A DNA stretch of 64,000 nt, taken from Deltaproteobacteria bacterium (GTDB taxonomy: Bacteria > JADJOY01). Of this stretch, positions 13,352-53,035 are shown piece after piece. Each line of letters opens with the position of its first letter. Within the stretch, counting starts at the first letter, position 1. Location: assembly GCA_016713535.1 (NCBI GenBank), contig JADJOY010000017.1, positions 34,436-98,435 of the forward strand, read 5' to 3'. The position numbers and the translations under genes are program-made. Under the pieces are notes generated by a model that had not been told where the DNA came from, did no database searches, and worked only from the letters and a program-made list of their open reading frames with translations.

Positions 13352-13483
13352 GGTGGTGTCGAGGCATCCATCGCCGTCAGCGCGCCGCGCGCGGCAGGCC
13401 AGCCGTTACACGCGAATGTACCCGACGTTCAACGTGACGCGGAGAATGTGCGGAAACGCTCGTCGGATGACCTTCGAGGTTGC

Positions 13484-13497
13484 GGCGCCGAAGTTGC
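13484..13497 (+). promoter_or_regulatory. sigma-54 (RpoN) type promoter GGCGC-N5-TTGC about 55 nt upstream of the DUF4398-OmpA-CsbD operon
   Basis: ttgcGGCGCcgaagTTGCact; invariant GG-N10-GC spacing; correct orientation. Confidence 0.5.
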
Positions 13498-13551
13498 ACT
13501 GCCCACCGTTGCGCGTTCGAACCTCCCAGCGCGCATTCCGGAGAACAGCTC

Positions 13552-16585: not shown

Positions 16586-17917
<1,332 letters not shown>

Positions 17918-19315: not shown

Positions 19316-19551
19316 CCGATCCTGATCCGTTCCGGCGCTCCCGTGCGGAGCCCCATGTACAGGCCGATGGCGAACGCGCCCGCCAGCCAGGGAAGCGGAT
19401 GCTCGCCGAGGTGTGTCTCGAAGCTCACCTGCTTGCGGAGCGCTCGGCCCAGGTCACCCATGGCCCGCTCCAGGGCCGCGCCGTCCCGGGCCGTTCGAGC
19501 GGCCAGCGCGCGGCGGGTCACGGCACCTGTGGGGCTCACCTCGGGCGCCAT
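19312..19551 (-). CDS. YqjK-like small membrane protein
   Basis: MAPEVSP...HPLPWLAGAFAIGLYMGL; start ATG overlaps the upstream stop as TGATG. Confidence 0.45.
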   Translation of the reverse strand: MAPEVSPTGAVTRRALAARTARDGAALERAMGDLGRALRKQVSFETHLGEHPLPWLAGAFAIGLYMGLRTGAPERIRIG

Positions 19552-19892
19552 CAACGCCCCGCGCCCGTGGGCGCCGTCGAGGCTCGCGCCGCGGCGACGA
19601 GCGCCAGCCCCGCGGCGAGGTGGAGCGCGCCCACCAGCGCGAGCGCCAGCGGCCACGACCACATCGGGCCCAGCCAGGCCAGCAGCGCGCCGACGACGCA
19701 GCACCAGCCGAGCGCGGTCACCACACCGCCCGCGACGGCGAACGACCCGCCGCGAGTGAGATCTCCCCACGTCTCCGCGGCCTGGAGCGCCAGCAGGTCG
19801 ATCCGGTCGACGACCAGTCGCTGGCCGGCGCCGTAGGCTTGCTCGATCGCGTCACTGACGGACGGTGTGCTCGTTCGCCGAATCGGGTCCAT
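19551..19892 (-). CDS. YqjE-like / putative holin-X (superfamily III) membrane protein
   Basis: MDPIRR...LALQAAETWGDLTRGGSFAVAGGVVTALGWCCVVGALLAWL; two-TM pattern. Confidence 0.55.
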   Translation of the reverse strand: MDPIRRTSTPSVSDAIEQAYGAGQRLVVDRIDLLALQAAETWGDLTRGGSFAVAGGVVTALGWCCVVGALLAWLGPMWSWPLALALVGALHLAAGLALVAAARASTAPTGAGR

Positions 19893-20004
19893 GGTCGCCG
19901 AACGATGCAATCCCCGCACCGCCGGGGCCGCGCGGTCCGGCCGTGCGTGATCCACGCCGTAGCCGGCGCATCCGGCGGGAAGGTCGTTCAGGCTCGGCGG
20001 ACCT

Positions 20005-20023: not shown

Positions 20024-20633
20024 GAAGGTGTAGGCGTTACCAGCGATCCAGCCTGCTTCGGGGTGGCCTTCCTCGTTCCCGCGGGGCCCACTCGCCGGAT
20101 CGCGACCTCGCGCCGGCTGGGAGCGGCTTCGGCGTGGGGCACTGCGCTTGCACTGCACAGCCATCGATCGACGACGATCCAATGGAACGCGCCCGTTCAC
20201 TTCGAGCGGACGCAGGGCCATGCCCGAGGAGAACGAACATGATCACGATCCGACGAGCCGCGCTTCCCGCGACGGCGGCCGTAGGGCTTGCGTCCGTGTG
20301 CGACGGCAACGACGCGACCCACCCGTTCCGCAACTCGTCGGCTTCTACGGCCCGCCGATCAACGACCCCGTGTTCACCACCACGCCGGGCACGCTCGACT
20401 CCAACGACAACGGCGAGCTCTTCGACGACGAGCCGTCGGTCGCGCTCACCGCGCAATCGACCGGCACATCCTCCGACACCGGTGACGAGCTCGATCTCCA
20501 GCTCTTCCTCGAGCCCGGCGTCTTCAACGTGGACTCCAGCGGCACCGGTGATCTGAGCGACGTCCGGACCACCGGCCGAGAGCAGGTCGTGGCGCGAGGT
20601 CCGTTTGCGAATCCCCCGCTTCGAAAGGCGATC

Positions 20634-21332
20634 ATGTCATCACCAGCACCACCTCCCGGCTCTCCCCCGACGCGGGGCGATCCGGCTCCCCGATCACCCC
20701 CCAGGAGGGTCCCGCTCCGGTTGCCCGCGCTGCCCTACGCGGCGGACGCGCTGGAGCCGGTGCTGAGCGGAGAAGCGGTCGATACGCACTACGAGAAGTA
20801 CCAGCGGCGCGATCTGGAGCGGCTCGAGCACTCCCTCGAGGGCTCTCTCCTCGGTGATCAGCCCCTCGACGGCATCGTGCGGCTCGCGACCGGGGAGGTC
20901 TTCGACCACGCCGCGCAGGTGTGGAACCACACCTTTTACTGGAACAGCATGACCCCGCGCGGCGGTGGGCGGCCGCGCCGCGGCCGCATCGCCAAGGCCA
21001 TCGACACCTCGTTCGGTTCCTACGACGAGTTCGCCGAGCGCTTTCAGCAGACCGCGGCCGGCCTCTTCGGCTGCGGCTACGTCTGGCTCTACCGCCCGGA
21101 CGAGACCGACCGCGTCGAGCTCGCGGCGCTGCCCAATGCCGGGAATCCACTCAGCCACGGCGGGGCGCCGATCCTCGTCGCGGACCTGTGGGAGCACGCT
21201 TACTACCTCGATCACCGGGAACAGTCCGCGCGCTACGTCCGCCTCTTCCTCGAGAGGCTCGTCCACTGGGACTTCGCCGAGCAGAATCTGTCCGAGGTCC
21301 GTGGACTGGCCGCGCGCGTCGGTCCGCGCTGA
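20634..21332 (+). CDS. sodB: Fe/Mn superoxide dismutase (Fe-type)
   Basis: LPALPYAADALEP ... AAQVWNHTFYWNSM ... DLWEHAYYLDHR; the metal ligands H, H, D, H are conserved. The ATG at 20634 gives a 30-aa Pro-rich N-terminal extension. An alternative TTG at 20721, 12 nt downstream of AGGAGG, would give a canonical-length protein. Confidence 0.85.
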   Translation: MSSPAPPPGSPPTRGDPAPRSPPRRVPLRLPALPYAADALEPVLSGEAVDTHYEKYQRRDLERLEHSLEGSLLGDQPLDGIVRLATGEVFDHAAQVWNHTFYWNSMTPRGGGRPRRGRIAKAIDTSFGSYDEFAERFQQTAAGLFGCGYVWLYRPDETDRVELAALPNAGNPLSHGGAPILVADLWEHAYYLDHREQSARYVRLFLERLVHWDFAEQNLSEVRGLAARVGPR

Positions 21333-21545
21333 TCCATGCGGTCGACCTCGATCACCGTGGGACCACCCGGCGCCGGAGGCGGACGGCCCTCGGCGCTGGT
21401 TCGAAACGCCTATCTCCAGCGCCGCGCGCGCTGATCGAGGACAGCCATGAGGTTCCGTCGGACTCGTCGGATGATCTCTACCAACTCGTGCCCGACGACA
21501 GGGCTCTGGACACGCAGCGGCCCGTGGAGTGAGGGCGCCGGGCGG

Positions 21546-22157
21546 ATGGTGCGCCGCCTGCTCGCGATCGGGTTGCTCGTCGGTCTGACCGGGGTGCTCG
21601 GTGCGACCCGCTCCGAGGCTGCGGCCGACGAGCCCTCGGCGTCGGAGGTCGTGAGGCGAATGACCGACGACGTCGTCGGGTTGCTCAACGACGGCACGAA
21701 GTCGGCCGCGGAGCGGCGCCGCGGGATCGAGCGGATCGCCGAGGCGAACATCGACTTCGACACGCTCTCGAAGCTGGTGCTGACGCAGTGGTGGTCGCGG
21801 CTCTCGCCGGCCGATCAGCGCGAGTTCGTGGCGCAGTTCCAGCAACATCTCGCTGTGACGTACGGCCGCAACTTCGAGCACTTCCACGACGAGACCGTGG
21901 AGGTGCTGGGAGATCGCGCCGTGTCCGACGGCGACTGGAAGGTGCTGACGCGGATCGTCCGCCCGAGCGCCCAGAGCGTGACGGTGAACTACCGGCTGCG
22001 GAAGATCGGCGAGCAGTGGCGCATCATCGACGTGCTGATCGAGGGCGTGAGCCTGGTGTCGAACTTCCGCTCCCAGTTTCACGCGATCCTGGCCGACGGT
22101 GGCGCACCGCAGCTCCTCCAGGTGCTGCGAGACAAGAACGCGGTTGGGACGAGCTGA
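21546..22157 (+). CDS. MlaC/Ttg2D-family periplasmic phospholipid-binding protein
   Basis: Signal peptide MVRRLLAIGLLVGLTGVLGA; toluene-tolerance Ttg2D-like body. Confidence 0.75.
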   Translation: MVRRLLAIGLLVGLTGVLGATRSEAAADEPSASEVVRRMTDDVVGLLNDGTKSAAERRRGIERIAEANIDFDTLSKLVLTQWWSRLSPADQREFVAQFQQHLAVTYGRNFEHFHDETVEVLGDRAVSDGDWKVLTRIVRPSAQSVTVNYRLRKIGEQWRIIDVLIEGVSLVSNFRSQFHAILADGGAPQLLQVLRDKNAVGTS

Positions 22158-22232: not shown

Positions 22233-22439
22233 CGCGAGCGCCTCGACCGGGTGTTGGCCGACCTGCGTTACGGAGCCGTGCGCTCCGGTGCGCGAGCCAG
22301 GAATGGAGTGGGGTCGCGGCCGTACGACGATCCGCTGGCGGCCACGTTCGATCGAGGAGGCTCGCCGGGGATCCCGTGATTCCCTTGGCTTACAGCGGGT
22401 GCTGTCCGCCGAAGCCGCAACCGGGGCGGCTCGGGCGTC

Positions 22440-22453
22440 GGCACCCGGTTTGC
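22440..22453 (+). promoter_or_regulatory. sigma-54 type promoter GGCACccggtTTGC about 60 nt upstream of the second csbD-like gene
   Basis: Exact GGCAC-N5-TTGC spacing. Confidence 0.55.
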
Positions 22454-22514
22454 GGTGCTTCCCAATGGATCGGAGATGCCAATCGCTCCATCGAGCAGAA
22501 GGGGAGGCCGAGTC

Positions 22515-27162: not shown

Positions 27163-27370
27163 CTCGGTAGATCGGCTGACGCGGTCCGCGGCGCGGGCGG
27201 ATCGCGCCGCGCGCGCCGCGGGCGATTGCAGGTCCGCTACAGGATCCTTGTAAGAGCTGCCGGGTGCCGCGGCGCCGACGGCGCAGGCCGCTTCCGGTCG
27301 TGGGGGTTCGGAGGGCCCAAGCGCGCGGAGAGCGCGTCGGGTCGCCGAGCTGCGCCCGGTGTGAACCCGC

Positions 27371-27384
27371 GGCACACACGTTGC
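27371..27384 (+). promoter_or_regulatory. sigma-54 type promoter GGCACacacgTTGC about 55 nt upstream of the DUF3309 / B12-rSAM operon
   Basis: cGGCACacacgTTGCt; exact consensus spacing. Confidence 0.55.
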
Positions 27385-27439
27385 TCTAGCCGGAGACCGA
27401 ACGTGCGGCCGGGTCCCCCGAGCCGTTGCGGGGGTCGTG

Positions 27440-27604
27440 ATGAGCGTGAGCCTGGTCGTGATCGTGTTGCTGGCGTTGCTTCTCGTCGGTGCCTTTCCCA
27501 CGTGGCCCCACAGCCGAGGCTGGGGCTACGGACCGTCGGGTGGTCTGGGGCTGGTACTGCTGATCGTCGTGATCCTCATGCTCACCGGGACCCTTCACCT
27601 CTGA
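27440..27604 (+). CDS. DUF3309 small membrane protein (55 aa; below the ORF-track size cutoff)
   Basis: MSVSLVVIVLLALLLVGAFPTWPHSRGWGYGPSGGLGLVLLIVVILMLTGTLHL matches the DUF3309 pattern (PTWPYSRGWGY); high GC3. Confidence 0.7.
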   Translation: MSVSLVVIVLLALLLVGAFPTWPHSRGWGYGPSGGLGLVLLIVVILMLTGTLHL

Positions 27605-27669
27605 GCCCGCGCGGCCGTCGCCGAGCGGATGGGTGACGGTCGACGGACGGCTCACCCGGAAGAATCCTG

Positions 27670-29306
27670 ATGAAGATCGAGTTGATCGCTCCCAAGAACC
27701 CGGAGTCGTTCTGGACGTTCGACCGCGTCCTGCCCACGATCTCCAAGAGCGCCACGTTCCCGAACCTGGCGCTCCCGACCTCGCGGCGCTCACTCCGCCC
27801 TGGCACGACGTCGTGCTCCGGGACGAGAACGTCGAGGCGATCGACTTCGACACCGACGCCGACTGGATCGGGCTCACCGGCTACATCGTCCACAAGGCGC
27901 GGATGTTCGAGATCATCGACGCGTTCAAGGCGCGCGGACGGCGCATCGCGGTGGGGGGGCCGTTCGCGACGCTGTGCCCCGAGCAGCTCCGCGACAAGGT
28001 GGACGTACTCTTCGTGGGCGAGAGCGAGCGCACCTGGCCACGCTTCCTGTCGGACCTCGCGGCGGGTGAGCCGAGGGCCGAGTACCACGCCGACGCTCTC
28101 CCCGAGCTCGACGACGCGCCGATCCCGCGCTTCGACCTGCTGAAGCTGAATCGCTATCGCAGCATGGCGGTGCAGTTCGCTCGCGGCTGTCCGTACACCT
28201 GCGAGTTCTGCGACATCATCGTCATGTACGGGCGCAGGCCGAGGACCAAGCCGGTGGCGCGCCTCGTCGCGGAGGTCGACGCGCTCCATGCGCTGGGCGC
28301 CCACGACGTGTTCGTGGTGGACGACAACTTCATCGGCAACAAGAAGGCCGCCAAGGCTCTGCTCCGCGAGCTCGTGGGGTGGCAGGTGGCGCACGGGTAC
28401 CCGGTGGAGTTCATGACCGAGGTCTCGCTCAACCTCGCCCAGGACGACGAGCTGCTGCGGCTGATGCACGACGCCAACTTCACGTCCGTGTTCATCGGCA
28501 TCGAGTCACCGCGGGTCGCGAGCCTCGAGGAGACCGGCAAGACCCAGAACATCCGCGCCGATCTGCTCGGATCGGTCCGCAAGATCCAGGACGCCGGCAT
28601 CGAGGTGATGGCGGGGATGATCGTGGGCTTCGACAACGACGACGTCTCCATCTTCGAGGAACAGTTCCGGTTCATCCAGGACGCTCGCATTCCGGTGTCG
28701 ATGACGGGCTTGCTGAATGCGCTACCGCAGACGCCGCTACGCGAGCGCCTGCTGACCGCGGGCCGGCTCGACGACGAGTACACCGGTGACCAGTTCGTGT
28801 TCTCGAACGTGATCCCGGCCGCGATGTCGCGGCTCGAGCTCTATGAGGGCTACAGGGACCTGCTCGAACGGCTCTACGATCACTCGAACTACCGCAGGCG
28901 TGCGATGGCCTTCCTCCGCGACCAGGGGCCGGAAAAACGCGTGCGTGTGTCCGCGGGCGCACACGAAGTGCGGATCTTCTTACGCGTGCTGTGGACGTGC
29001 GTGCTCCTCGCGCCGCCGCGGCGCGCGGCGATGACGCTGCGCATGCTCGGCGAGACGTTGCTGCGCAGGCCCAGCTCGATGCGCAAGGCGGTGGTGCTGG
29101 CGCTCATGCACAAACACCTTCACGAGTACGCAGTCTTCGTCCGAGCCGAGCTCGATCGGATCATCGTCGGCCTGCGCGCCCCGGCACCGCCACCGGTCGC
29201 CGTCGCGGAGCTCGTCGGTCATCGTCTGCTCCCTCAGGACCGGTTGGCGGGGCGCCGGTCGCCAGATCCGGCGAGCGGGCACGTGGTCGACGTTCCGGCC
29301 GGGTAA
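27670..29306 (+). CDS. B12-binding radical SAM protein with DUF4070-type C-terminus; apparent -1 frameshift near 27780
   Basis: N-terminus MKIELIAPKNPESFWTF is in frame 27670; the rest is in frame 27633 (B12-binding region, FARGCPYTCEFC CxxxCxxC, DUF4070-like tail). The frame changes inside a C run (ccgacctcg). Confidence 0.8.
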
Positions 29307-29439
29307 CCCGGTTGGCGGGGCGCGGCCAGGACTCCGTCACGGCGCGCGGAGCGTGGACGGACCCGTGGCGCCGGCGGTGAGATCCGCCTCGATTCCAGGG
29401 AGATCCGTGGCGTTGGCAGACCTCCATGGCCGCTTGCTC

Positions 29440-29453
29440 GGCACGTCGTTTGC
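29440..29453 (+). promoter_or_regulatory. sigma-54 type promoter GGCACgtcgtTTGC about 80 nt upstream of the alpha/beta hydrolase gene
   Basis: tcGGCACgtcgtTTGCgct. Confidence 0.55.
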
Positions 29454-29534
29454 GCTCGCGAACGGGTGGCTCTGGCCGCGCGGCCCGGTCTCGCGAGTGA
29501 GAGCGGCCCGGTAGCGCCGAGGGGGGGCTCATCC

Positions 29535-30653
29535 ATGCAACGCAGAAGCTCGCAGGCTCTCGACGGGATCGCGAGCTTTCTCGGAAGGCTCGTCATCCGG
29601 AGCGGAGCCGCTGCCGAGAATACGCTCGCGCAGCTCGATGCCTACCGCGGTCGCACCGTCGAGGAGCTGTTCCCGGCACCGCCGGGGCTGCCCGACGTCA
29701 CGGTCGCGCGCGCCTGGAAGGTCGGGCCTTTCGAGAGCCTTCACCTATCGTTCCCGTCGGAATACCAGCCCATCGCGCCCGACTTCCGGCAGCGCCACGG
29801 CGACGAGTACCGCCGCAATCAACAGGTCTCGGTGCGGTGGATCCGTCACACGCGCGGCGGCCCACGGCCCACGCTCATCTTCCTGCATAGCTGGATGCAA
29901 CCCGATACCGCGCTCGAGGAGCTCACGATGTTGCCGGTGCTCGCCGGTCAGCTCGGGCTCCACGTGGCCCGGCTCGACCTCCCGTACCACGGACGGCGCA
30001 AGCCTCTGGGTTCCCGGTTCGGGGGCGAGTACTTCTGGACCGCCGACCTGGTGCGTACCGTCGAAGCCATCGGACAGAGCGTGTGGGACACGCGGCGCCT
30101 GGTCTCGTGGCTCTCCGCTCAGGAGGGCGCGCCCGTCGGGATCATGGGGTTGAGCCTCGGCGGGATGATGGCGCTCTACACCGCGTGCGCCGACCCACGC
30201 CTCGCGTTCGCGATCGGCGTAGCGGCCCACCTCGATCTCGCCGGCGTCCTCGGCGACGCCTCCATCCTGAAGCGCATGCGCGGCGAGCTCGAGAGCCACG
30301 GCTGGAGCCCCGCCGACGTGAGTGCCTACATGGCGCTGGTGGGCATCGCGGACCTGAAGCCCGTGATCCCGCCCCAACGGATCTTGCTGGTCGCGGGCAA
30401 GTACGACCGGCTCCTCAGCGCCGATCGCACGGAAGCGCTGTGGAAGCGCTGGGGCGAGCCGCCCATCCACTGGTTTCCGGCGGGGCATCTGGGGATCTTC
30501 ACCCAGCTTCCGGGCACCATCGCCGTGGTTCGCCGATTCCTCGAGGGGCTCGGTCTCGGGCGGTCGCGACGCAACGGTGAGGCGGGCTCCACGTCTGTAG
30601 CGCCTACAGATCCGTTGTCACCCCCATTCAACGACGTTCCGCCGAGCGCCTGA
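29535..30653 (+). CDS. alpha/beta hydrolase fold protein
   Basis: GLSLGG nucleophile elbow (GxSxG), HSW oxyanion region; start ATG 29535 (MQRRSSQ). Confidence 0.75.
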   Translation: MQRRSSQALDGIASFLGRLVIRSGAAAENTLAQLDAYRGRTVEELFPAPPGLPDVTVARAWKVGPFESLHLSFPSEYQPIAPDFRQRHGDEYRRNQQVSVRWIRHTRGGPRPTLIFLHSWMQPDTALEELTMLPVLAGQLGLHVARLDLPYHGRRKPLGSRFGGEYFWTADLVRTVEAIGQSVWDTRRLVSWLSAQEGAPVGIMGLSLGGMMALYTACADPRLAFAIGVAAHLDLAGVLGDASILKRMRGELESHGWSPADVSAYMALVGIADLKPVIPPQRILLVAGKYDRLLSADRTEALWKRWGEPPIHWFPAGHLGIFTQLPGTIAVVRRFLEGLGLGRSRRNGEAGSTSVAPTDPLSPPFNDVPPSA

Positions 30654-30761
30654 TCGGCCGGCGCCCGCCGCGCCCGCCCCGACCTGGATAAGGGTTGCGC
30701 TTCGGTGGGGTGGGGGAATCGGCATCCACTCGCGCCGACCGCGCGAGGCGGTCGCGAGCCC

Positions 30762-30775
30762 GGCGCCCACCTTGC
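30762..30775 (+). promoter_or_regulatory. sigma-54 type promoter GGCGCccaccTTGC about 105 nt upstream of lmo0937-EncFtn-encapsulin
   Basis: cccGGCGCccaccTTGCtc. Confidence 0.45.
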
Positions 30776-30882
30776 TCTATCCGTCGTGTGGCGGTGCTTG
30801 CGGCCGCTCAATGGCGAGGGGAGGAGCGACGGACCGTCGCGAGAGGGATGGTGGCGCCCCTCACCCTCGGTGGAGGGTCGTC

Positions 30883-31032
30883 ATGTTGTGGACAATCGCA
30901 CTGGTGTTGATCGTGCTGTGGCTCCTCGGGTTGGTCAGTAGCTACACGATGGGCGGTTTCATCCACGTTCTACTGGTCGTCGCCGTGATCGTGGTGCTCG
31001 TGAGCCTGATCCAGGGTCGCAGAGTCCTGTGA
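30883..31032 (+). CDS. lmo0937-family small membrane protein
   Basis: MLWTIALVLIVLWLLGLVSSYTMGGFIHVLLVVAVIVVLVSLIQGRRVL; GGAGGG RBS. Confidence 0.7.
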   Translation: MLWTIALVLIVLWLLGLVSSYTMGGFIHVLLVVAVIVVLVSLIQGRRVL

Positions 31033-31133
31033 CGCGCGACCTACTTCGATCGCTCGACTCCCGCGGAGGGACGAACACGTCCGCCCCGGAGCTCGATTCC
31101 GAGGGTGCCACCTCGGCGCCCGGGAGCCCACGC

Positions 31134-31577
31134 ATGAACGGTTACCACGAGCCCTATGAATCCCTCGCACCGCCGGACCGCGATCTCCATCGCGCGCTGC
31201 TGAGCTTGAAGGAAGAGATCGAGGCCGTGGATTGGTACCACCAGCGGGTCGTGACCTGCACCGATCAGGACCTCGGGCAAGTGCTCGCGCACAACCGCGA
31301 CGAGGAGATCGAGCACGCGTGCATGACGCTCGAGTGGGTGCGCCGCACGAGTCCGGCGTGGGACCTCGCGCTCAGGAAGTTCGTGTTCACCGAGGGCTCG
31401 ATCACGCAGAAGGAACGTCCCTCCCCATCGGCGCCCCTCGCCGCGTCGCGCGGACACGCCGAGCCGCCGCGAGGTGACCTCGCCATCGGGCGTTTGCACG
31501 ACCCGGTCGAACCGAAAGGGCGGCACGATTCGCGGGCCGCCGGCGCTCCCGAGCGTGCGCTTTGCCCCACCCCATGA
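31134..31577 (+). CDS. encapsulated ferritin-like protein (EncFtn) with C-terminal cargo-loading peptide
   Basis: HEPYESL...LLSLKEEIEAVDWYHQRV...AHNRDEEIEHACMTLEWVRR closely matches the EncFtn fold; the tail contains GDLAIGRL, similar to encapsulin targeting peptides. Confidence 0.85.
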   Translation: MNGYHEPYESLAPPDRDLHRALLSLKEEIEAVDWYHQRVVTCTDQDLGQVLAHNRDEEIEHACMTLEWVRRTSPAWDLALRKFVFTEGSITQKERPSPSAPLAASRGHAEPPRGDLAIGRLHDPVEPKGRHDSRAAGAPERALCPTP

Positions 31578-31588
31578 CGAGGACACCC

Positions 31589-32413
31589 ATGGACACCTTC
31601 AGGACGTCGTTGGCGCCGATCTCGGCGACTGCGTGGACCGAGCTCGAGCGGCAGGCCCGGGCCTCCCTCACCGCGCCGCTCTCGGCGCGCCGGATCGTCG
31701 ACGGCCGCGGACCGCGCGGGTGGGACGCCTCCGCGATCAACCTCGGCCGGCTGCGCCTTCACGACGGCGAGCAGGACGGAGTGTCGTTCGGGATCCGCCA
31801 GGTCCTGCCGCTGATCGAGCTGCGCGTCCCGTTTCGCCTCGGCCTGTGGGAGCTCGACAACGCCGCGCGCGGTGCGCTGGACCTGGACCTGAGGCCCCTC
31901 ACCGCCGCGGCGCGAGCGATCGCACACGCCGAGGACGAGATCGTGTTCCGCGGCCTCGCCGCGGCGGGTGTGCGAGGGGTGCTCGACTCGACGGCGCGCA
32001 CGCCCGTCGAGTTCGGCGCCGATCCACAGCGGTTCCCGGCGGCCGTGGCCAGCGCGCTGGTCCGGCTCAAGAACGACGGGGTCGGCGGGCCGTACGCGCT
32101 GGTCGTGGGCGCCGAGCTCTTCACGGCCCTCAGCGGAACGAGCGGCGATCAGTATCCGCTGATGCCGCGCCTCGCGCGGCTGATCGATGGCCCGGTGCTC
32201 CTGGCGCCGGTGCTTCGCGACGGTGCGGTGCTGGTGACGAGGCGGGGCGGCGATTTCGAGCTGACGCTCGGTCAGGACGTCACGCTCGGCTACGAGTTCC
32301 ACGACTCGAAGGACGTGAAGCTCTTCTTCACCGAGTCGGTGACGTTTCGAGTGCTGGACGAGGACGCAGCGGTGCTGTTCCGTCCCGAGGCGAGCGCGAC
32401 CGCGGTCACCTGA
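31589..32413 (+). CDS. family 1 encapsulin shell protein (linocin M18-like, HK97 fold)
   Basis: Start at M10 of the ORF 31562..32413 with GAGGA RBS. Matches T. maritima encapsulin across its length (RRIVDGRGPRGWDASAINLG..., LPLIELRVPF.LGLWELDN, GGDFELTLGQDVTLGYE). Confidence 0.9.
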   Translation: MDTFRTSLAPISATAWTELERQARASLTAPLSARRIVDGRGPRGWDASAINLGRLRLHDGEQDGVSFGIRQVLPLIELRVPFRLGLWELDNAARGALDLDLRPLTAAARAIAHAEDEIVFRGLAAAGVRGVLDSTARTPVEFGADPQRFPAAVASALVRLKNDGVGGPYALVVGAELFTALSGTSGDQYPLMPRLARLIDGPVLLAPVLRDGAVLVTRRGGDFELTLGQDVTLGYEFHDSKDVKLFFTESVTFRVLDEDAAVLFRPEASATAVT

Positions 32414-32546
32414 CCGGCCCGGCGCCGAGGAGCTCGACGCATCGCCGCCGCGTCCGGGCGCGGGCGGCATTCCCGAAGGCCCGGAAACCAAGGAACCGAG
32501 TGGCCCGGCAACCTCGCCGGGACACGTCGGATGGCGGGGGACCACC

Positions 32547-32861
32547 ATGATCACGAACCGATTTCACGTTGGCCGGCTGGGTGTGGGATGGACGGTGCGC
32601 CGCGAGTCCGACCCCGGAACGCTGATGCGGTTCCCCACCCAGAGCGAGGCCGAGGTCGCGGCCCAGGCGCGCTGTCGCGGCGCCCTCGACGTGGTGGTGG
32701 TCGACGCGGCTTCCAGCCAGCGCCGAGGCCGCGCCAAACCCGGCTCGTCCCTGGCCGCGCTCGAGGCGATGCTCCGCCGTGCCTCCTCCAGGCTCGACGA
32801 GTCGGCCCAGCGCCTCGCCGCGCTCGGTGCGTGGCCGCCCACCACCCCGGATCGGTCATGA
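32547..32861 (+). CDS. DUF2188-family small protein
   Basis: MITNRFHVGRLGVGWTVRRESDPGTLMRFPTQSEAEVAAQARCRGA; stop overlaps the next start (ATGA). Confidence 0.7.
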   Translation: MITNRFHVGRLGVGWTVRRESDPGTLMRFPTQSEAEVAAQARCRGALDVVVVDAASSQRRGRAKPGSSLAALEAMLRRASSRLDESAQRLAALGAWPPTTPDRS

Positions 32862-33975
32862 CGCCGGAGCAGGGGCCGAGCCCGAGGCTCGTCGACTTCC
32901 TCGCCGCTCACCGCGAGGAGATCCTCCGCCGCACCGGCATCCGCGTCGGAGCCCGCCTCGGGCCAGGCGTGACGTCCGAGCAGCTCGAGGAGGGTGTTCC
33001 GCTGTTCCTGGACCACCTCGAGGTGGTGTTGGGGGTGGGTGAGGTGTCGCCGGGCGATGATCCGGCTCGGAGGAACGCGGGCGCGGCGGCCCACGGCGCA
33101 GCGCTCCAGCGAGCGGGGTTCACGATCGCTCACGCGGTCCACGGCTATGGCGACGTCTGCCAGGTCGTGACCGAGCTCGCCGAGGACCTCGGCCATCCGA
33201 TCACGGTATCGGAGTTCCACGCCTTCAACTGGTGCGTCGACGTGGCGGCGGCCGAGGCCGTGACGGAGTACCAGCGCCGCCGTGAGGCCGCCTTCGCGAG
33301 CGACGAGAACGAGCGGCTGGGGATGCTGGCGCACGAGCTCCGAACTCGATCAACGCCGCGCGGCTCTCGTACGAGCTCCTGCGCCTGGGCCGGGTCGGCG
33401 TGCGCGGCAGTACGAGCAACTCGCTGGGACGCAACCTGCGGCGCCTCGGCGTGCTCATCGACCGTGCGCTCGCCGAGGTCCGGCTCCAGTCGGGAAGCAG
33501 CAGTCTCTCGCCGATCCAGGTGGCAGCGCTCGTGGAGGACGTCGAGGTCGACGCCAGGGCTCACGCCGCCGATCAAGGTCTGGGGCTCGTCGTGGCGTTC
33601 GTGGATCCTGCCCCCGGGGGCTGCGTCTCCATCCTCACGTCGGCCGACGCGGAGCGCGTGCGGATCCACGTCGCGGACGACTGTGGCGGGCTCGGCGAGG
33701 GCGTGGCCGAACATATCTTCCAGCCGTTCGAGCAGTGGGGCGCGGATCGTACGGGGCTGGGCCTCGGCCTCACGATCGCTCGCCGCGCCGCCGAGGCGCA
33801 GGGGGGATCGGTGTCGGTCGAGGACCGTCCGGGGGCCGGCTGCACCTTCACCCTCGAGCTGCCCCGCGCATTCACTGCGGTCCGTGGCCAGGGCACGGAA
33901 TCGGCGCCCGAGATGGCCTCCAATGCCGCGGCGCCGCGCGCTCGTCCACCGCGGACCGACCAGAACTCGCCATGA
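32858..33975 (+). CDS. cytoplasmic sensor histidine kinase; apparent -1 frameshift near 33340
   Basis: H-box MLAHELR in frame 32531; then N-box/G-box/HATPase (NSLGRNLRRL..., DDCGGLGEGV...GLGLGLTIARR) in frame 33400. The junction is ctccgaactcg, probably missing one base. Confidence 0.75.
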
Positions 33976-34208
33976 AGCCACCTTCCGGTAAACCCCGGCC
34001 GAACGTTCGCGGTGTGCTCCGATCCAGCCACCCGCGCTCGAGCTGGGCCGGGTCGCTGCTGGACGGAGAGTCGGTGCCGCCTCCGTTCAGCTGCGACCCG
34101 GATCCCGCGCCGCCCGCGCCACCCGAGGCGATCCGCCCCGCGAGCGAGGACCACGCGCAGGCCCTCGCGCGCTGGGAGTCGGAGGGTGGCGGGCTTGCGG
34201 GCAGGTAA
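33972..34208 (+). CDS. small hypothetical protein with C-terminal ARWESEGGG motif, translationally coupled to the histidine kinase
   Basis: ATGA overlap with the kinase stop; 78 aa; high GC3; Pro-rich middle region. Confidence 0.45.
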   Translation: MKPPSGKPRPNVRGVLRSSHPRSSWAGSLLDGESVPPPFSCDPDPAPPAPPEAIRPASEDHAQALARWESEGGGLAGR

Positions 34209-34292
34209 CGATCGGGCGTGAGCGCCGCGTCCGCTATTGAAGGACACGGGCTCGCCCGACACGTGGGTCTGGATCGGACGGCGAGCGAGGAG

Positions 34293-34482
34293 GAGCACGA
34301 CATGTACGAGCAACGCCACGAGCGGCCGTTGCCCGCCGAAGACCGATCCGGGGAAGCTCTTCGCGGGGCTCTATGCGCTCTACGACGGGATCGTGTTCCT
34401 GGTGGTGGCGGGCCTGTTGCTCGCCCCGGTCACGCACCGGGTGCTCCACCACTTCCACTGGACCGAAGAGCGTGGCTCGTGA
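34293..34482 (+). CDS. putative small membrane protein (about 59 aa) split by a +1 frame change at a GGGG run
   Basis: GAGGAGG RBS 7 nt before ATG 34293 (MYEQRHERPLPAEDRSG). A strongly GC3-biased hydrophobic continuation lies in the next frame (KLFAGLYALYDGIVFLVVAGLLLAPVTHRVLHHFHWTEERGS). Confidence 0.3.
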
Positions 34483-34511
34483 GCGCCGCGCCAGCGCACG
34501 TGGTGCGCGAC

Positions 34512-34988
34512 TCAGCGCGGTGGTCTCGCCGAGTCGTCGCGCGGCTCGGCGCCAGGCGCCGCGGTCCAGTGGATCGTCACTTCCTTCTTGCCGAACTCGA
34601 GCGCAGCGGACTCGTCCTTGCCGAAGTAGACGTCGATCCGGCGATGCCAGCGCGCGTCCATCTTGTCGGCGACTCCTCCACCACCCGGCAGTCCTTCGAT
34701 CCGCACCTTCGTGCCCTCGTCGAGGCCCATCTCGGCGAGGTCCTTGGACACCGCGATGACCTGCATCCCGGGGCGAAGCTTCGCCCCGCTGGCGGTGGTC
34801 CCGGGCGTCGAGTCGGTCTGCGCCGCGAGCGAGTTGAACGCGGTGGCCGTCACGCGCACCGATCGTTCCGTGGACGTCCGAGGCGGCGCGATGGGCTCGG
34901 CCGGTCCCGGCACCGGGGTGCGCTCCGTGCATCCGGCGAGCAGCACCGAGCACAGCAGGCCCCCCCAGAATGCTCGTGTCGCTTCCAT
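34512..34988 (-). CDS. 3D-domain (MltA/RlpA-like) lipoprotein
   Basis: Start ATG 34988 with GGAGG RBS; lipobox LLAGC; 3D domain motifs (GAKLRPGMQVIAVS...DKMDARWHRRIDVYFG). Confidence 0.7.
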   Translation of the reverse strand: MEATRAFWGGLLCSVLLAGCTERTPVPGPAEPIAPPRTSTERSVRVTATAFNSLAAQTDSTPGTTASGAKLRPGMQVIAVSKDLAEMGLDEGTKVRIEGLPGGGGVADKMDARWHRRIDVYFGKDESAALEFGKKEVTIHWTAAPGAEPRDDSARPPR

Positions 34989-36079
34989 CCACGCCTCCGT
35001 ACGGTGCGAGCCTGCCGACCCTTCACGCGCCGTCGAACCTTGCCTCGCTCGCGTACGACCTGCGGATCGAAGATCCGAGGCAGACGCTCGGCGAATCGTG
35101 TGCGAGCCAGGAACGGGGACGTGTCGGTCGATCACGAGATCCTGCCGCTGCGGTTGGACGTGCCGCCCTGCCGGTATCGTGCATCCCACGACCGGTTCAA
35201 CGAGCCATCCAGGTCGGTGGGAATGCCGTTGGTGCCGACGAGCCGTGGGACGTGGACGCTCGCTCCGGCGGGTCTCGAGGGCGTCGCGGCCGCGCCCTTG
35301 GTGCGCCGTCGCTTGGCGGCCCAGTTCGCAAGCGCCTGGAACCAGCCCGGGCTCGTGTCGGACCTCGCGCTCGGCGCTGTGCCCGAGGCGTTCTCGGCGG
35401 CTGGGAGCCCCCGGTCGTCGCGGCAACGCACGCTCACCACCGCCCGGCCACGAGCGCCAGGCGCACGGGGCTGATCGCTGCACCTCGTGGCGGAGGGATG
35501 GATGCAGCATTCCCTACGGCGGAACGGGCGCGGGGTGTTTCGAGGACGGACATGTGCTCTCCCATGGTGACACGCGGGTCGAAGGGCGCGGGAACCCGCA
35601 AGTAACGTTCATCGGCGGGCGGGCGGGTGCCAGCGCGCGACTCGCCTGCCCGGTCAGCCGGGCAAGACCTGGCTCGCCCCGCTCGACCGAGAAGCACGCA
35701 GAATGCCGGTGGTGAGCTCAGGGCCTGGCGGGTACGCCACCGCCGGCGCGGTCAGCCTATCATCACGCCAGGGACGACGAACGCACGACCCGCCAGCCTT
35801 CCTTTGCTCGACCGGCCGGCCGGAGGACCCGGCGGTGTGCGCCCGCTCAGCTCGACTCGGTGCTGGCGAGGCGGCTGCCGGTGACCCGCAGTCGCAGCCA
35901 GTCGATGGCCGCGGAGCGATGGCCCGCGCGTTGCTAGCGCATGGCCGCGCACGGCTGCGCGATCGGGTTTCAGCCGTAATCCTGCGCAAAATCTCGCGCG
36001 ACAGGCGAAACCGATGACCGACCCACTTTCAAACGGCGAGCAAAAACTACAAAGCGGCGGGGCTGGCGGAGGAGCGAGC

Positions 36080-51632: not shown

Positions 51633-52850
<1,218 letters not shown>

Positions 52851-53035
52851 GGATTCACTCCTTGCATGGGACGGCGAGGTCGATCGCGCGGCTGCGTCGG
52901 GGCGAGCCTCGGGGTCCCGAGAAATCGGGCGGGGATGAACCCCGCCCCTACGTGCAACGACGGCGGCCCGGGGTAGGGGCGGGGCCCGTCCCCGCCCGCA
53001 GCGTTCGGTCCGGCGACGTCGCGGATTCGATCATC

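Follow-up and report, generated by a model that had tools for sequence, protein, structure and literature searches.

We analyze a 64,000-nucleotide (nt) stretch of DNA from a deltaproteobacterium (contig JADJOY010000017.1 of assembly GCA_016713535.1, positions 34,436 to 98,435 of the forward strand; hereafter, the window) that carries genes for an encapsulated ferritin (EncFtn) and, 11 nt further on, for a family 1 encapsulin shell. The pair stands behind a gene for a small membrane protein and a candidate sigma-54 promoter, and ahead of a trio of genes for two small proteins and a cytoplasmic histidine kinase. The account at which we arrive, and which we hold to be likely as a whole, is that the locus encodes a family 1 nanocompartment, that its operon belongs to a sigma-54 stress regulon, that the trio is a separate unit, and that the kinase is inactivated in this sequence. 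The features are as follows, with lengths in amino acids (aa) where a protein is encoded.

30596-30619 (+): candidate enhancer-like element (upstream activating sequence), TGTAGCGCCTACAGATCCGTTGTC, with three TGTA/TACA half-sites
30761-30776 (+): candidate sigma-54 (-24/-12) promoter, cGGCGCccaccTTGCT, with a predicted transcription start near 30787
30883-31032 (+): small membrane protein of the DUF5670/lmo0937 family, 49 aa, the first gene past the promoter
31134-31577 (+): EncFtn, 147 aa, consisting of a ferroxidase domain, a linker, the motif GDLAIGRL (31473-31496) and a 26-aa tail (31497-31574)
31589-32413 (+): family 1 encapsulin shell, 274 aa, from matches to PF04454, NF041155 and PDB entries
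32547-32861 (+): p104, 104 aa, species-restricted and possibly DUF2188-like, from a sub-threshold Pfam match
32858-33975 (+): gene for a cytoplasmic histidine kinase of the RsbRD_N type, disrupted, from alignment with loci L001 and L093
33972-34208 (+): p78, 78 aa, with a conserved N-terminal KPRPxVRGVLRSSHPRS and C-terminal LARWESEGG

The window and the loci compared

All six reading frames named in an earlier note on this DNA were found at the positions it gave. The window has a G+C content of 70%, and the organism is Gram-negative in type, a gene for MlaC being present at 21435-22157. Proteins identical or nearly identical to those of the window are recorded for an NCBI metagenome-assembled genome (MAG) under locus tags of the form IPK07_171xx (p104 as MBK7974922.1, the shell as MBK7974921.1); a search for exact sequence matches to the shell protein and p104 returned no record.

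Two of the loci collected for comparison, L001 and L002, come from the window's own species, L001 being a 2,675-bp contig that is 97.7% identical to the window. The main comparison set (L011-L090) takes the 80 best encapsulin loci in a collection of species-representative genomes. The closest genome in that collection is the MAG GCA_964650975.1, whose encapsulin, at locus L011, is 78% identical to the window shell; the other encapsulins reach at most 57%. Three further loci of this relative MAG (L007, L008 and L094) were used as well.

The nanocompartment core

The earlier note had read 31134-31577 as an encapsulated ferritin and 31589-32413 as a full-length HK97-fold encapsulin, separated by 11 nt, and on all three points profile searches and coordinates bear it out. 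The EncFtn product matches PF22277 at 7e-38 (128.7 bits, cut-off 27) and TIGR04535 at 130.7 bits (cut-off 125). The shell product matches PF04454 (Linocin_M18) at 2.9e-81 (272.9 bits, cut-off 24.3) over the entire profile (1-253 of 253), and it passes the family 1 encapsulin equivalog NF041155 with 280.4 bits (cut-off 100). The EncFtn stop codon ends at 31577 and the shell ATG begins at 31589. An EncFtn match is found in 81 of 90 collected loci, and the pairing of this cargo with the shell is therefore the norm.

Since encapsulins and phage capsids have the HK97 fold in common, 31589-32413 could in principle be the capsid gene of a prophage. The profile scores rule this out: the family 1 equivalog is passed by a wide distance, and in a phmmer search of the PDB the matches (9RY4 at 2.6e-67 over residues 5-268, then 7ODW, 3DKT and 7BOJ) are encapsulins without exception. 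A motif-bearing EncFtn directly upstream also argues against a capsid, as does the neighborhood, in which Pfam scans find no terminase, portal or protease; the sole phage-named match is Phage_holin_3_6 (Holin-X) at 19551-19955, 11.6 kb upstream and on the opposite strand. We give the prophage explanation practically no chance. The locus is a standard family 1 encapsulin nanocompartment with an EncFtn cargo, and this core identification is secure.

When compared with solved structures by HMMER, the window EncFtn has as its closest matches that of Haliangium ochraceum (7OE2, 3e-31), NE0167 and Rhodospirillum rubrum Rru_A0973. The H. ochraceum system, known from structures of the shell (7ODW), of the shell with the EncFtn localization sequence (7OE2/7OEU) and of EncFtn (5N5F), is likewise a two-gene operon in which the cargo gene precedes the shell gene. 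Its EncFtn domain aligns to that of the window without gaps, and the two shells align over residues 1-265 with an E-value of 3e-64. It differs from the window in that the window EncFtn has 26 residues after its targeting motif and that a DUF5670 gene stands between the window's candidate promoter and EncFtn. In sequence, the window shell reaches about 50% identity at most with anything from beyond its own lineage. The R. rubrum protein (5DA5) also aligns without gaps, at an offset of +4, such that its E32, E62, H65 and Y39 correspond to E28, E58, H61 and Y35 of the window protein, which keeps all four. We take Glu32, Glu62 and His65 to form the R. rubrum ferroxidase centre, with Tyr39 nearby, roles that were reportedly described by He and colleagues in 2016. 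The linker, the tail sequences and the regulatory context differ between the two systems. Within this well-known class of system, the window nanocompartment is a new and fairly divergent member.

In such nanocompartments, EncFtn decamers are bound to the shell lumen through a targeting peptide, and Fe(II) passes the shell pores, is oxidized by the di-iron centre of EncFtn and ends up as mineral in the shell interior. Shells with a triangulation number (T) of 1 are known for the nearest solved relatives, and because of this T=1 would be our guess for the window shell too.

A targeting motif followed by a tail

The earlier note had remarked that GDLAIGRL, in the C-terminal part of EncFtn, resembles a cargo-loading peptide. 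HMMER aligns the window's GDLAIGRLHD to GSLGIGSLRQ, the crystallographically defined localization sequence of H. ochraceum, and GDLAIGRL also aligns to the (S/D/G)LGIGSL consensus of 77 independent loci; 71 of these have the pattern (S/D/G)L.IG(S/N/K/D/G)(L/M/I) in their EncFtn frames. No other reading frame of the window was found to end in a motif of this sort.

What sets the window protein apart is the position of the motif. In those loci it is followed by 0-11 residues, mostly by 1-6. In the window it lies not at the extreme C-terminus but 26 residues inside it, with HDPVEPKGRHDSRAAGAPERALCPTP (31497-31574) behind it, and in L011 it is followed by 23 residues, HDAVEPGEARATAKRRRERSAGA (L011 2434-2505), with LHD.VEP common to both. 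Among 79 loci, a post-motif extension of 23-26 residues occurs in this clade only. Because the reading frame runs on through the tail and an orthologue with 69% identity conserves it, we regard it as real and not as read-through of a lost stop codon. Such a tail on EncFtn appears not to be described in the literature searched.

A candidate sigma-54 promoter ahead of the operon

The first gene of the operon, at 30883-31032, was placed by the earlier note in the lmo0937 family of membrane proteins, and it passes the cut-offs of both PF18919 (3.2e-16, 59.6 bits, cut-off 23.5) and the equivalog NF033488 (62.6 bits, cut-off 30). A DUF5670 gene is present in just one of the 80 comparison loci.

Upstream of this gene, GGCGCCCACCTTGCT at 30762-30776 has the canonical spacing between the -24 GG and the -12 GC (TGGCAC-N5-TTGC). 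The window contains four copies of the string GGCRC-N5-TTGCW, where 0.54 would be expected; each of them is on the plus strand, and none of 100 shuffled sequences reaches this number. With a relaxed definition (a match at 9 or more of the 11 consensus positions, GGC and TGC anchors included), the window has 12 hits, of which 9 are non-coding and at most 250 nt upstream of a start codon on the same strand. According to a hand-built gene table, the share of such promoter-type positions expected by chance is 4.6%, which gives a binomial P of about 2e-10. In the closest relative, L011, a better site, GGGCACccgccTTGCA, stands 119 nt upstream of EncFtn.

Several observations weigh against a sigma-54 promoter here. 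The site at 30762 fits 9 of the 11 consensus positions, with C for T at -26 and G for A at -22. Beyond the motif, no alignment is found between the DNA upstream of the operon in the window and that in L011. A survey of 79 EncFtn loci of other taxa shows sigma-54-like sites to be no commoner on the sense strand (9, versus 6 antisense), from which it follows that sigma-54 wiring, if there is any, is specific to this lineage. Finally, rpoN is absent from the 64-kb window.

The motif at 30762 might then be a product of chance, and the operon might be served by an unrecognized promoter of the sigma-70 or extracytoplasmic function (ECF) type and be under the iron or peroxide repressor control that is usually assumed for iron-storage genes. 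The imperfect fit and the lack of enrichment in EncFtn operons in general would agree with this, and GGC and TGC strings arise easily in GC-rich genomes. A review ties EncFtn systems to oxidative stress, under which they are up-regulated, and names no regulator (PMC11202242). Chance, however, does not sit well with the strong enrichment and promoter-type placement of the motif in the window, with the better copy at the equivalent position in L011, or with an enhancer-like element that the operon has in common with the promoter of a DUF3309 gene (described below). Moreover, a scan of 30400-34700 found no sigma-70-like promoter, and inspection of the 230-nt upstream region, the only means used, revealed no AT-rich sequence resembling a Fur box. 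We consider the chance explanation rather unlikely and continue with a sigma-54 promoter.

The earlier note's sigma-54 candidate is strengthened by this enrichment and positioning and by the relative's site, as well as by the activator gene and the enhancer-like element treated next. Its suggestion that the sigma-54 context may be new also holds so far: in the literature searched, we found nothing relevant on encapsulins together with sigma-54, rpoN or two-component regulation.

Sigma-54-like sites, an enhancer-like element and an activator

The sites of the set lie 50-220 nt upstream of stress-type genes. They are listed here together with the activator gene.

13483-13498 (+): sigma-54-like site ahead of a DUF4398/OmpA lipoprotein gene, which is followed by that of a protein with four BON domains
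20137-20152 (+): sigma-54-like site ahead of an N-terminally extended Fe/Mn superoxide dismutase
22439-22454 (+): sigma-54-like site ahead of CsbD
27370-27385 (+): sigma-54-like site, cGGCACacacgTTGCT, ahead of the DUF3309 gene 27440-27604; sister promoter
29439-29454 (+): sigma-54-like site ahead of an alpha/beta hydrolase
30761-30776 (+): sigma-54-like site ahead of DUF5670-EncFtn-shell
35920-35935 (+): sigma-54-like site ahead of a protein without a named family
27164 and 45096 (-): sigma-54-like sites ahead of two minus-strand genes
16586-17917 (-): sigma-54 activator of the NtrC type with receiver, AAA+ sigma-54 interaction and HTH_8 domains (PF00072; PF00158, 4.9e-70; PF02954)

The relative MAG has such sites in similar company: CGGCACacgcaTTGCT upstream of a DUF3309-kinase pair in L008, sites upstream of a kinase paralogue and of two other genes in L007, and one upstream of DUF3309 and a p78 homologue in L094.

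Two of the window's candidate promoters have an enhancer-like element in common. The pattern TGYA-N5-7-TACAS-N5-6-TGTM occurs in the window at 27227 and 30596 only, against 0.005 expected, a figure that overstates the case, as the element was spotted by eye and the pattern then tested was drawn up post hoc; this, too, has to be set against a sigma-54 reading. The copies lie 143 nt (27227-27252, DUF3309) and 165 nt (30596-30619, DUF5670-EncFtn) upstream of their promoters. The core TACAS-N5-6-TGTM is also present at 13407-13421, 76 nt upstream of the site at 13483. In the relative MAG, the element takes the form TG(T/C)AAGCGGG(C/T)TACAC-N5-6-TGTA(G/A) and stands about 110-170 nt upstream of three sites (L007 2288, L007 3636 and L008 3212). 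A count of 9-mers shared across the upstream regions yielded nothing. As judged from these positions, chance is a poor explanation for finding the element near independent -24/-12 sites in both genomes.

The best NCBIfam models for the activator at 16586-17917 are AtoC, ZraR and NtrC, and it stays below every equivalog cut-off. It is a stand-alone gene, convergent with a BON gene and without an adjoining kinase gene. Its identity to the activator that stands beside a kinase homologue in L091 is 38%, at which level orthology is not demonstrated. It is a candidate for the protein that regulates the stress promoters, which together with the EncFtn operon look like one regulon.

Three side observations concern this part of the window. 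In the Fe/Mn superoxide dismutase (20268-21332, +), about 150 residues precede the domain, forming a hydrophobic segment at the N-terminus and a linker of low complexity, which suggests an exported or membrane-anchored enzyme. A gene for a B12-binding radical SAM/DUF4070 protein (27573-29306, +) has its start inside the DUF3309 gene or immediately behind it, and may share the candidate sigma-54 promoter of DUF3309. ARAGORN places a 93-nt tRNA-Arg(TCG) at 52494-52586 (+), antisense within the argininosuccinate synthase gene (51633-53030, -); since Rfam, which at gathering thresholds has no match anywhere in the window, reports no tRNA there, the call is probably a false positive.

A disrupted kinase gene

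The earlier note had read the kinase gene as a single open frame for a soluble histidine kinase, which alignment with near-identical loci contradicts. One G is missing from the window at 33342/33343 (CTCCGGAAC in L001, CTCCGAAC in the window), which shifts the frame three codons past that of the phospho-acceptor His (33332-33334). A 78-nt in-frame deletion at 33613/33614 further removes the segment encoding LVVLADGVLFGTALSNLVQNAVKFSHR, the N box, which in the L001 allele reads LSNLVQNAVKFS. A HATPase_c domain is matched within 33400-33975, and the window has no uninterrupted kinase frame with H, N and G boxes. In L001, the gene (1551-2675) is uninterrupted and encodes at least 375 aa, with matches to HATPase_c (3.9e-21) and HisKA (4e-4). 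A third locus, L093, has the single-nucleotide polymorphism (SNP) alleles of the window together with both segments that the window lacks, but carries a 1-nt deletion of its own near 33239 (about 1941 in L093).

The presence of the missing G and of the 78 nt in a locus with the window's SNP alleles speaks against a genuine loss, and the window comes from an NCBI MAG, a type of consensus that can contain indel errors. The lesions could accordingly be artifacts of metagenome assembly in an organism whose kinase gene is intact. Errors in base calling, on the other hand, do not typically produce a clean 78-nt in-frame deletion, and the separate deletion in L093 means that disrupted alleles recur. 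Since three near-identical alleles are found in three states (two lesions in the window, a different one in L093, none in L001), it can be argued that at least some of the heterogeneity is real; sequencing error, or else decay in progress or heterogeneity, would account for the pattern. We think an assembly artifact possible but doubtful, and as the window sequence reads, the kinase is inactivated.

This kinase belongs to a large family, for which more than 5,000 hits were obtained, about 355-375 aa in length; Myxococcota and Acidobacteriota MAGs are among the sources, and the homologues carry RsbRD_N (PF14361) and HATPase_c (PF02518). In the relative MAG they adjoin genes for CsbD, BON, DUF3309 and Ku; in L091 and L092 they adjoin NtrC-type activators.

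The small genes behind the shell

The first of the small proteins, p104, was assigned to DUF2188 by the earlier note, a call that falls below the Pfam gathering threshold: PF09954 matches residues 12-43 only, with 17 bits against a cut-off of 22 (E 0.0066). An NCBIfam scan gave no match, and among 5.8e9 proteins the only homologues are those of its own 90% cluster. A single-sequence AlphaFold2 (AF2) model has a predicted local distance difference test score (pLDDT) of 68, and a Foldseek search of the PDB with it returned nothing below E 0.1. Among the collected loci, p104 occurs in L001 and L002 only.

For p78, profile searches of Pfam and NCBIfam gave no match. One homologue family was found among 1.84e9 representatives (P0251, 83 aa, E 1e-6), in which the two ends are conserved and the middle diverges; the family is real but rare. 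The P0251 gene lies in the relative MAG (L094 3572-3823), directly downstream of DUF3309 and behind a sigma-54-like site, and the family is also present in L095 (814-1065). The motif WExEGG occurs once in the approximately 0.96 Mb of collected DNA. Further downstream, at 34237-34482 (+), there is a frame with high G+C at third codon positions (GC3) and an ambiguous start codon, whose product includes a hydrophobic segment, LFAGLYALYDGIVFLVVAGLLLAPVTHRVLHHFHW; Pfam has nothing that matches it, and none of the collected loci contains a homologue.

According to the earlier note, p104, the kinase and p78 are chained by ATGA overlaps. Both overlaps exist (32858-32861 and 33972-33975), but the second joins the native frame of the kinase, which is abandoned through the frameshift. 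Between the shell and p104 there is a spacer of 133 nt, whose folding is on a par with that of shuffled sequence (z = 0.02). Across 30400-34700, a terminator scan found none on the plus strand, its two overlapping hairpin-like hits forming one minus-strand site (32493-32509). With neither a terminator nor a promoter of its own found in the spacer, co-transcription of the trio with the shell gene is possible, which counts against treating the trio as separate.

The earlier note went further and suggested that a kinase and two small proteins, translationally coupled directly behind the shell gene, may be new. If the three were a functional extension of the operon, the kinase would sense stress or iron and control induction of the nanocompartment. 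The common strand, the overlaps and the open spacer suit this proposal, as do the intact kinase of L001 and the occurrence of the kinase family behind sigma-54-type promoters and beside NtrC-type activators, which makes a feedback loop conceivable. Against it, the kinase is disrupted in the window and, differently, in L093, and no orthologue of p104, p78 or the kinase is found in any of the 80 comparison loci, the closest relative L011 included (8 of the 80 have weak kinase-domain matches, at no more than 37% identity). It follows that the trio next to a shell gene is specific to this species. In addition, p104 lacks homologues beyond its own species and the p78 homologue accompanies DUF3309 at a different locus. 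A functional coupled extension seems to us quite improbable, and we treat p104, the kinase and p78 as a separate, species-specific module with no promoter of its own detected, into which transcription may read through from the operon.

Discussion

The operon, as we propose it, would consist of DUF5670, EncFtn and the shell gene, most likely transcribed from the sigma-54 promoter at 30762 when an enhancer-binding protein is bound about 150 nt upstream. Its EncFtn would act as a decameric ferroxidase, packaged via GDLAIGRL into a shell that is probably T=1, and would oxidize Fe(II) such that iron oxide is stored in the shell and Fenton chemistry is limited. The operon would belong to a sigma-54 stress regulon specific to this lineage, whose further members, in the same 20-kb stretch, would include CsbD, DUF3309, the OmpA/BON pair and the Fe/Mn superoxide dismutase. 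Wiring of this sort is plausible on the sequence evidence, and neither it nor the surrounding regulon of small stress proteins appears to be described in the literature searched.

General stress regulons are known under sigma-B in Bacillus and Listeria (with CsbD and lmo0937), under RpoS in enterobacteria (with OsmY/BON and YjbJ/CsbD) and under EcfG in Alphaproteobacteria. From general knowledge, their content is similar to what we see in the window, namely CsbD, an lmo0937-family protein, DUF3309, BON, superoxide dismutase and iron sequestration, and the RsbRD_N domain of the window's sensor kinase family is also found in proteins of the sigma-B stressosome. The candidate promoters of the window, in contrast, are of the -24/-12 type with an upstream enhancer-like element, and not of the sigma-70 family. 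In this they would resemble sigma-54 stress systems with a dedicated activator (such as PspF/psp, ZraSR and RtcR), where a -24/-12 promoter goes with an AAA+ activator and with an enhancer at a distance of 80-200 nt; the target genes of those systems are different, and the window's activator, as noted above, scores below every equivalog cut-off.

We tentatively suggest, as an idea that we would not yet call probable, that sigma-54 governs the general stress response of an uncultured deltaproteobacterial (probably Myxococcota-like) lineage. Promoters of the -24/-12 type with a common TGTA/TACA enhancer would then drive CsbD, DUF3309, the lmo0937-family protein, BON/OmpA, superoxide dismutase and the EncFtn-encapsulin pair, with an NtrC-type activator and RsbRD_N kinases providing the signaling. 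A sensory role for these kinases is hinted at by their gene neighborhoods only. A sigma-54 stress regulon would fit the view that EncFtn systems are induced by oxidative stress (PMC11202242), and it would agree with the motif set including a superoxide dismutase gene.

For the encapsulin family, the conserved extension of 23-26 residues amounts to a small natural experiment on whether the targeting motif must be C-terminal, a question that bears on the engineering of cargo loading. The structures of EncFtn-encapsulin systems are well characterized, and the control of their production is largely unknown. The window offers a testable regulatory hypothesis, with a -24/-12 site, an enhancer-like element, a candidate activator and a candidate family of sensor kinases. 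If it is true, the regulon would stand beside those of sigma-B, RpoS and EcfG as their sigma-54 analogue, and it would provide the first regulator assigned to any encapsulin system. A nanocompartment among classic small stress proteins would fit an iron sink for times of stress, not a housekeeping store.

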